From Escherichia coli (GTDB lineage Bacteria; Pseudomonadota; Gammaproteobacteria; Enterobacterales; Enterobacteriaceae): 64,000 bases of DNA. A model generated the notes under the pieces. That model was given only the letters and a program-made list of their open reading frames with translations, made no database searches and was not told the DNA's origin. The stretch lies in assembly GCF_003790525.1 (NCBI RefSeq), contig NZ_CP033635.1; one strand, written 5' to 3'. This document shows positions 5,277 through 5,680 of the stretch, piece after piece; positions within the stretch are counted from its first letter, which is position 1, and every line of letters begins with the position of its first letter. Position numbers and translations under genes: made by a program.

Positions 5277-5312
5277 CGGGAGAGTATGTACTTTCCCGCT
5301 ATGAATTGCTAA

Positions 5313-5489
5313 TTAATAGCCACCATGACTGCCGTGATTTGGTCCACCATTTGAAGGTGGCATTGCCTTATCGGAGGGCGCAGGACCACGAGGGCCATCG
5401 CTGTGGCGGTGATGATGGTGGGGAACACAAGCACTCAACAGGCTTGCAAAGACAATTGCTAACAGGCTGAAGGTAAATGTTTTTTTCAT
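5313..5489 (-). CDS. Hypothetical small His/Pro/Gly-rich lipoprotein (58 aa)
   Basis: Within ORF track 5313..5543; internal start MKKTFTFSLLAIVFASLLSAC with lipobox-like LSAC, followed by HHHHRH; AAGAG RBS-like motif upstream; no homolog recognised. Confidence 0.3.
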   Translation of the reverse strand: MKKTFTFSLLAIVFASLLSACVPHHHHRHSDGPRGPAPSDKAMPPSNGGPNHGSHGGY

Positions 5490-5515
5490 GACAAACTCTT
5501 GAACGGTTAATGCAC

Positions 5516-5531
5516 TGTGATTGTTATCACA
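5516..5531. promoter_or_regulatory. Perfect CRP-type palindrome TGTGA-N6-TCACA
   Basis: Sequence tgtgattgttatcaca read directly; lies between the small lipoprotein ORF start and a plus-strand TAATAT hexamer. Confidence 0.45.
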
Positions 5532-5613
5532 TAAAAGCTGCATTGTTAATATTGTCAGGAGTCTGATTATGAGTTTTGGTAACTCAGAATTGAAAGAAGA
5601 CGCGTAGCAGGCG

Positions 5614-5647
5614 TAAAAAAGCCATTACGTGCAACTCACATAATGGC
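5614..5647 (-). terminator. Putative rho-independent terminator downstream of ychF
   Basis: Stem gccatta/taatggc followed by T-run on minus strand, about 34 nt after ychF stop. Confidence 0.5.
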
Positions 5648-5680
5648 TCGTTATTAACCGCCAGAGTAGTATTAGCGGAA

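Follow-up and report, generated by a model that had tools for sequence, protein, structure and literature searches.

In a 64,000-nt window of Escherichia coli DNA (NCBI RefSeq assembly GCF_003790525.1, contig NZ_CP033635.1), we analysed the spacer between the convergent genes dhaR and ychF. It measures 404 bp (5277-5680; positions are those of the window unless another locus is named), close to the roughly 400 bp given by the first-pass annotation, which a model had made from the sequence and its open reading frames (ORFs). We consider it probable, as one joint statement, that this spacer represents an old allele, alternative to others at a variable locus, that it did not arise by a recent deletion of the autotransporter gene ycgV, and that it carries a small, real minus-strand gene, encoding a predicted lipoprotein and read from its own promoter, which is overlapped by a CRP-type palindrome.

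A small minus-strand gene and its predicted lipoprotein

The small gene has 58 codons, and its product is MKKTFTFSLLAIVFASLLSACVPHHHHRHSDGPRGPAPSDKAMPPSNGGPNHGSHGGY. The protein is already in RefSeq as a 'hypothetical protein' called by the Prokaryotic Genome Annotation Pipeline (PGAP), under WP_169780884.1 here and WP_001311636.1 in strain Nissle 1917. Comparison of the Nissle 1917 copy with that of E. whittamii revealed 14 synonymous and 2 nonsynonymous differences, corresponding to a synonymous divergence (dS) of 0.47 and a nonsynonymous divergence (dN) of 0.015 (dN/dS 0.03; approximate binomial P = 9e-8, with a neutral expectation of 23% synonymous). The window copy differs from that of E. 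whittamii by 13 synonymous and 5 nonsynonymous changes (dS 0.43, dN/dS 0.09), and for the same pair the neighbouring dhaR gave 154.5 and 38.5, respectively (dS 0.456, dN/dS 0.059). The synonymous divergence of the small ORF thus equals that of dhaR while its protein is near constant, indicating a real coding gene. Over six cross-lineage pairs, the ratio of nonsynonymous to synonymous change per site (pN/pS) was 0.08 in the sense frame and 1.4-3.1 in four other frames, among them the frame of a 54-aa plus-strand ORF (5306-5470), which at 3.06 behaves as non-coding. The sixth frame (antisense frame 1) was also low, with a pN/pS of 0.14; we attribute this to selection acting on the sense frame, and not to a second coding frame, because across the gene the ORF list has no plus-strand ORF of at least 20 aa except the 54-aa one. 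Within E. coli, the window and Nissle 1917 copies gave a dN/dS of 0.89 on 4 changes, a value that is unconvincing because the divergence is too low. In length the ORF differs only by 6 nt (Pro-Gly), inserted in frame in both E. whittamii and E. marmotae.

Taken together, these codon comparisons show that in four Escherichia species the small ORF is kept intact and its protein sequence is held by purifying selection. Codon-level conservation across related genomes was a point by which the first-pass annotation had proposed to judge its small ORFs, and the 58-aa minus-strand lipoprotein-like ORF passes. That annotation had left open which strand is expressed; sequence evolution appears to favour the minus strand, and does not favour the 12-codon ORF on the plus strand that had been proposed beside it. 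In every species the frame of the small gene continues open for 18 more codons on the upstream side, to an ATG at 5543, and a 76-aa form is found in some annotations (P0003). We rejected this upstream start: it has no Shine-Dalgarno element, the signal peptide would be buried, and the extension is probably not translated because its variable positions are nonsynonymous in 4/4 cases.

The product has the organisation of a lipoprotein precursor. Following M-K-K there is a 14-residue hydrophobic stretch, TFTFSLLAIVFASLL, and then L-S-A-C, which with its cysteine at residue 21 agrees with the pattern [LVI][ASTVI][GAS]-C with Cys at 15-35 (a PROSITE PS51257-type rule). None of the 11 protein variants compared, which come from 4 species, differs at L17, L18, S19, A20 or C21, and the automatic, rule-based UniProt name for the E. 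marmotae copies is 'Lipoprotein'. The 38 residues of the mature part, CVPHHHHRHSDGPRGPAPSDKAMPPSNGGPNHGSHGGY, include 7 His, 7 Pro and 7 Gly. The LSAC lipobox and the HHHHRH cluster that had been pointed out earlier are indeed both in the sequence; H24-H27 and H29 of the cluster are invariant in the protein alignment, and a second histidine motif, NHGSHG, is also found. AlphaFold2 modelled a helix at residues 3-20 only, the remainder having a per-residue confidence (pLDDT) of 55-61 and no secondary structure; the mature tail is thus predicted to be disordered and rich in His, Pro and Gly.

We infer that the product would be processed by Sec, Lgt and LspA, with cleavage before Cys21, leaving a disordered periplasmic tail of 38 residues. 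Since Val occupies position +2 and the Asp inner-membrane retention signal is absent, the Lol pathway would sort the protein to the inner leaflet of the outer membrane. The HHHHRH cluster and NHGSHG would bind a divalent metal (Ni, Zn, Cu or Co), making the protein a tethered periplasmic metal buffer or chaperone; metal binding by the tail is a guess from composition. Pfam has nothing on record for any member of the small-gene family. A word-indexed search of 5.8 billion proteins likewise returned only the protein's own family besides low-complexity and signal-peptide matches, such as P0027, which covers query positions 4-27 (the signal-peptide and His region) in 15 stretches, and P0028 and P0029, which are of the same kind. 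As far as such searches reach, the small lipoprotein is a genus-restricted orphan, without relatives outside Escherichia.

The region upstream of the start codon is also conserved. It holds a palindrome, TGTGATTGTTATCACA, which reads TGTGATAACAATCACA on the minus strand (5531-5516) and matches the CRP core TGTGA-N6-TCACA perfectly. This is the only TGTGA-N6-TCACA in the 64-kb window, as compared with 0.07 expected from shuffles (6/100 shuffles had at least one), and in 9 sequences covering 4 species its 16 bp show no change. The palindrome recorded in the first-pass annotation is therefore present, improbable by chance and invariant across four Escherichia species. In the same 9 sequences, the 52-bp block 5490-5541 has 4 variable columns, compared with variation at 26% of third codon positions (P = 0.0009) and in 23-31% of the columns of flanking non-coding segments, and the block 5542-5592 has only 3. 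It follows from these counts that a conserved, putative control region of ~100 bp exists upstream of the small-gene ATG.

The small gene would have its own promoter, in the DNA that separates its ATG from the ychF terminator (5615-5649); that this upstream terminator is strong speaks for independent transcription. When scanned with a promoter consensus, the region gave a single hit, TTAACA-18-AACAAT, with 9/12 matches. Its two hexamers do not vary among the sequences, and the three variable positions 5539-5541 lie between them. A start near 5513 would give a 24-nt leader containing the Shine-Dalgarno element and would put the centre of the CRP box at about -10.5, with the -10 hexamer inside the box. 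An alternative candidate further upstream, with a weak -35, has an invariant CATAAT and would yield a ~70-nt leader that holds the palindrome. CRP activates at class I promoters from -61.5 and further upstream and at class II promoters from -41.5, and represses by overlapping the core promoter. For the small gene, an activating geometry is impossible because the centre of the box is only 34.5 nt from the start codon, and the overlap of the box with the best candidate -10 suggests occlusion (repression or gating) rather than class I or II activation. We therefore hold, with moderate-to-low confidence, that cyclic AMP (cAMP)-CRP may bind here and repress or gate the small-gene promoter.

Other regulatory readings of this region were tried by eye and rejected. 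A sigma-54 reading of CTGGCA...TGC, prompted by the homology of DhaR to enhancer-binding proteins, fails on the GG-to-GC spacing, which is 15 and not 12, and on the presence of TGACA at that position. Comparison with the consensus boxes of Fur, Zur and NikR gave only partial, asymmetric matches.

Distribution and history of the spacer allele

We examined the spacer type of the window in complete E. coli genomes and found it in 1,296 of 5,426, essentially always at full length and always including the ORF region. The haplotype of the window is 100% identical to that of SMS-3-5, which we take to be a phylogroup F strain. The commonest haplotype, with 98.7% identity to the window, is that of Nissle 1917, O25b:H4-ST131 and the enteropathogenic E. 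coli (EPEC) strain E2348/69, and a 93%-identity haplotype includes the avian pathogenic E. coli (APEC) strain O2:K1:H7; all four presumably belong to phylogroup B2. Beyond E. coli, a scan of one genome per GTDB species detected the small gene in E. whittamii and Escherichia sp. E1V33, and its protein cluster also takes in copies from E. marmotae. In all three the gene is intact between ychF and dhaR. The short allele is thus old, being present in the cryptic-clade species as well as in early-branching groups of E. coli. The 93%-identity haplotype (SCU-306) is nearer to Escherichia sp. E1V33 (dS 0.05) than to the other E. coli haplotypes (dS 0.23-0.27), which suggests recombination across species boundaries at the locus. 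Records labelled as plasmids in the complete-genome collection also gave matches, at 4 places for the spacer and at 12 for the dhaR region.

E. albertii has a dhaR-ychF spacer of only 160 bp (locus L024, 7585-7744; Logan DRR017213), in which there is no small ORF and no significant similarity to the window spacer beyond the ychF terminator. A different hairpin adjoins dhaR in this species, and its DhaR is called at 527 aa, as against 639. Citrobacter gave no outgroup information, its dhaR not adjoining ychF. The small gene could have originated by de novo birth or by capture, or could have been lost in E. albertii.

In other E. coli strains this site is occupied by a ycgV allele or by an island bearing an integrase. 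In TOP10, a K-12 derivative, the interval between dhaR and ychF spans 3.7 kb: ycgV (2,868 nt, on the minus strand) follows dhaR after 99 bp and is separated from ychF by 768 non-coding bp. This bears out the statement in the first-pass annotation that K-12 has ycgV here. In the window, the ORF list shows no gene for a Pertactin-like passenger with an autotransporter beta-barrel between dhaR and ychF. Homology between the window and K-12 ends at 5269, 7 nt before the dhaR stop codon, and restarts at 5679, 2 nt beyond the ychF stop codon; between these points, comparison of the window spacer with the K-12 dhaR-ychF interval detected no similarity (sensitive BLAST, and Smith-Waterman with two scoring schemes, z = 0.3-2.2 relative to shuffles). 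The description of the spacer as lacking ycgV is thus right as to the absence. It does not hold as a simple deletion: the spacer looks like an old alternative allele common to other Escherichia species, and the ycgV allele, by inference, like a later replacement of it. As alleles, ycgV and the small gene are mutually exclusive, with strain HH45 as the sole exception. At least two length alleles of ycgV occur, 955 and 961 aa (L017/L023, 8933-11818); some assemblies have no gene called across the ycgV interval, probably representing pseudogenes (L019, L020 8093-11900), and locus L020 has no gene called at the expected dhaR position.

Islands were also observed at the ychF end of the locus. The last ~22 nt of ychF, GAACTTCCTTTTCAACGTCTAA (5679-5702), are repeated at both ends of a ~7-kb island (L018 8071-8092 and ~14986-15007) that carries a tyrosine integrase, AlpA and a DUF5906 protein. 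Different integrase islands sit at the same point of ychF in other strains (L015 8306-9481; L002 6500-12517), and in KN13-4 an integrase island lies downstream of an intact small-gene spacer. The duplication of the ychF 3' end and the variety of the islands indicate that this end acts as an attachment site.

The features of the spacer and its flanks are listed in Table 1. The ychF terminator is kept in all species compared, E. albertii included (local alignment z = 13); it was missed by the terminator scan and confirmed by folding. The hairpin over the dhaR stop codon begins 13 nt past the stop of the small gene and has no U-tract on either strand. It is probably a shared 3' end structure of dhaR and the small gene.

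Table 1. Positions of genes, predicted elements and structures in and around the dhaR-ychF spacer
Feature	Position	Strand	Details	Basis
dhaR, dihydroxyacetone kinase operon regulator	3357-5276	+	start 3357/3348	ORF list and RefSeq annotation, identical region of strain 2016C-3878
Hairpin over the dhaR stop codon, between convergent dhaR and small gene	5271-5300		-20.5 kcal/mol, z = -5.25	folding; 0/200 shuffles as stable
Small gene, 58 codons, predicted lipoprotein	5313-5489	-	ATG at 5489, TAA 5315-5313	ORF and annotation
HHHHRH cluster	5403-5420	-	codons 24-29, start of mature peptide	sequence
Predicted signal peptide and lipobox	5427-5489	-	MKK n-region, hydrophobic core, L-S-A-C, Cys21 (codon 5429-5427), Val at +2	
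Shine-Dalgarno-like AAGAG	5496-5500	-	6 nt upstream of ATG 5489	sequence; invariant in 9 sequences
CRP-type palindrome	5516-5531		centre 5523.5, 10/10 core positions	sequence
Candidate sigma-70 promoter	5520-5549	-	TTAACA (5549-5544), 18-nt spacer, AACAAT (5525-5520), start near 5513	candidate from consensus scan
Extended -10-like element	5544-5552	+	TAATAT 5547-5552, preceded by TGT	sequence
AGGAG	5557-5561	+	7 nt before ATG	sequence
Alternative candidate promoter	5566-5594	-	TTCAAT, 17-nt spacer, CATAAT (5571-5566); weak -35	candidate, by eye
12-codon ORF	5569-5607	+	ATG 5569	sequence
ychF intrinsic terminator	5615-5649	-	13-bp stem, 5-nt loop, T6 tract	folding, -21.1 kcal/mol, z = -2.75
ychF, redox-regulated ATPase	5681-6772	-	stop codon 5681-5683	ORF list and RefSeq annotation

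Alternative explanations

Much of the conserved upstream DNA can also be read from the plus strand, where TAATAT, AGGAG and the 12-codon ORF mentioned by the first-pass annotation are all present. We regard it as unlikely that the functional unit of the spacer is a CRP-dependent promoter on that strand (TTATCA, a 17-nt spacer and TGTTAATAT) giving a ~90-nt transcript from ~5559 to the bidirectional hairpin at 5615-5649, which would serve as a small RNA and/or as the mRNA of MSFGNSELKEDA, the conservation of the minus-strand ORF then being secondary. Such a promoter would have its extended -10 and a 4/6 -35 overlapping the CRP box and an AGGAG 7 nt before the ATG; 5542-5592 is nearly invariant, and in 9/9 sequences the AGGAG is retained and the ORF is open, as M-[S/N/T]-F-G-N-S-E-L-[K/E]-[E/V/A]-[D/A]-[A/T]-stop. 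However, the predicted start would place the CRP centre at about -36, which is ~5 bp off -41.5 and not at -61.5, and would cut into the AGGAG itself. Furthermore, a scan of 4800-6200 on both strands with Rfam gave 0 matches even at E = 1, the G/A variant at 5628 in the hairpin keeps pairing only in minus-strand RNA (as G-U or A-U, with a C-A mismatch in plus-strand RNA), and the 14:2 ratio of synonymous to nonsynonymous changes in the minus-strand ORF would be left unexplained. Within the micro-ORF, which is very short, residues 2 and 9-12 vary, the conserved part contains a single synonymous difference (TTT/TTC), and nt 5578-5592 are invariant with third positions included. This pattern appears more consistent with constraint on a nucleotide-level element (promoter-upstream DNA or RNA) than on a peptide. 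The 12-codon ORF is accordingly not supported as a coding gene, its last four residues varying freely and its core being almost without synonymous change. A small RNA from the plus strand could coexist with the minus-strand gene, as a minor and non-exclusive addition. To the view that the palindrome is not a CRP operator at all we give a small but real chance: it could form an RNA hairpin (UGUGAU-AACA-AUCACA) in the ~70-nt leader, or be bound by some other regulator, such as a metal sensor in view of the histidines of the product. The upstream candidate promoter with its invariant CATAAT would be in keeping with this, as would the conservation of the whole ~100 bp upstream of the ATG, beyond the palindrome, and a palindrome position that fits no CRP activation geometry. 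Nevertheless, both half-sites are the exact CRP core at the exact 6-bp spacing, rarely expected by chance in a window of this size, the boxes of Fur, Zur and NikR match poorly, and a 6-bp stem makes a weak RNA element.

A different origin for the whole spacer is suggested by strain HH45, whose 539-bp spacer (L004 2432-2970) is a fine-scale patchwork and unique among the 5,426 genomes. It mixes pieces resembling K-12 ycgV and its upstream region (L003 4467-4584, 3961-4021 and 5243-5300; 90-99% identity) with pieces of a degraded small ORF (83-92%), and contains a run rich in G, GGTGGGGAGGGGGTTAGTGTGGGAGGGGGAGGAGGGAG. On this view the window spacer would be what is left of a decayed autotransporter gene of the ycgV type, with a 58-aa ORF open by accident and without function. 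A MAFFT alignment, which depends on this single mosaic genome, puts the 5' half of the small ORF on ycgV codons ~397-417 in frame, with indels in multiples of three (12, 6 and 3 nt), and PGAP calls a pseudogene in the HH45 spacer. We nevertheless consider debris without function very unlikely, since the window spacer aligns with the whole K-12 interval no better than shuffles do and the ORF is intact under purifying selection across species at a dS of ~0.45. HH45 is, moreover, one genome in 5,426, and its ycgV pieces are near-identical to modern ycgV, so that it looks like a recent recombinant; alternatively, its spacer may be an artefact of assembly, or may point to autotransporter debris as the source of the orphan gene. 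Even with such an origin, the small gene would now be functional.

Several observations weigh against a functional minus-strand lipoprotein gene with its own CRP-overlapped promoter. Most E. coli and E. albertii are without the gene, frameshifted versions are present in public assemblies (P0006-P0012), and in 3 of the 60 best-matching genomes the gene is not annotated; together these imply that it is dispensable. Several of the frameshifts break in or just after the CCCC/His-codon run (~5400-5425) and may be sequencing errors or real inactivation. The binomial P values draw on few sequences that are phylogenetically related. The lipobox rule is weakly specific, matching 16 of 1,955 ORF starts in the window and ~4.7 per shuffled window (about 0.5-0.8%), so that the lipoprotein call rests on the n/h/c organisation and on conservation across species. 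Among protein families, the match to the NCBIfam LptM model covers residues 1-21 only (E = 0.045, 13.8 bits against a cutoff of 27.7 bits), an exhaustive hidden Markov model (HMM) search of 1.84 billion representative proteins returned only the protein's own family, and for the suggested metal binding no family of known function matches. The literature searched gave no published mention of the protein, its accessions or its sequence. As for the promoter, the scan expects ~0.9 matches of this quality by chance in the region, so the promoter is a candidate only; the CRP centre fits no activating position (-41.5, -61.5 or -71.5) relative to the start on either strand, both starts being predicted ones. 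The palindrome could also owe its conservation to a hairpin in a longer leader RNA, or to the promoter-like element of the plus strand that overlaps it. We still favour the small minus-strand gene on an old alternative allele, at the strength stated at the outset.

Significance and relation to known systems

About one complete E. coli genome in four carries the small gene in conserved form, among them those of the medically important ST131 and E2348/69 and of the probiotic Nissle 1917. As K-12 is without it, the classical functional and small-protein catalogues, maps of CRP binding by chromatin immunoprecipitation (ChIP) and ribosome-profiling (Ribo-seq) atlases do not cover it. It offers a clean case of a short, lineage-restricted 'hypothetical' gene that passes a strict evolutionary coding test, and the locus documents allele replacement at the 3' end of ychF among a small lipoprotein, an autotransporter and integrase islands. 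Should the tail prove to bind metal and the CRP box to work, extraintestinal lineages would have a link between their carbon status and the handling of metal in the periplasm. The practical value will stay modest unless expression and a phenotype can be demonstrated. A bolder version, to which we assign a low probability, is that an orphan born after the E. albertii split, de novo or, as the HH45 mosaic would suggest, from autotransporter debris, became a catabolite-controlled, His-rich, metal-buffering outer-membrane lipoprotein of the early-branching phylogroups B2 and F (extraintestinal pathogens, ST131, Nissle 1917) and the cryptic clades and was traded for the YcgV adhesin in most other E. 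coli.

In kind, the product would be an uncharacterised small enterobacterial lipoprotein, and nothing in our comparisons appears to overturn expectations. Like Lpp, OsmB, the entericidins EcnA and EcnB, and LptM/YifL, it falls among precursors of ~40-80 aa with a lipobox, a cysteine near residue 20, no Asp at +2, and a short mature part with little or no fold. In contrast to these proteins, it has no similarity to them beyond the signal peptide, is rich in His, Pro and Gly, and is restricted to part of the genus Escherichia. A His-rich flexible region, here HHHHRH and H-x-x-H, is generally known from ZraP, SilE/PcoE, the N-terminus of ZinT, Hpn, and the tails of UreE, HypB and SlyD. The small lipoprotein is predicted to be periplasmic like ZraP, SilE and ZinT, but it is much smaller, is predicted to be lipid-anchored and has no homology to them in the HMM search. 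With YcgV, the AIDA-I-type autotransporter of K-12 with Pertactin and Autotransporter domains, it shares the position between dhaR and ychF and the strand; the two differ in length (955-961 aa for YcgV and 58 aa for the small lipoprotein) and have no significant DNA or protein similarity. The palindrome has the exact TGTGA-N6-TCACA core of CRP-controlled promoters and overlaps the candidate -10/-35 elements, as repressing sites do. Finally, the gene resembles other bacterial orphan genes in being short, of low complexity, confined to a single genus, located in a variable intergenic locus and absent from the outgroup E. albertii.

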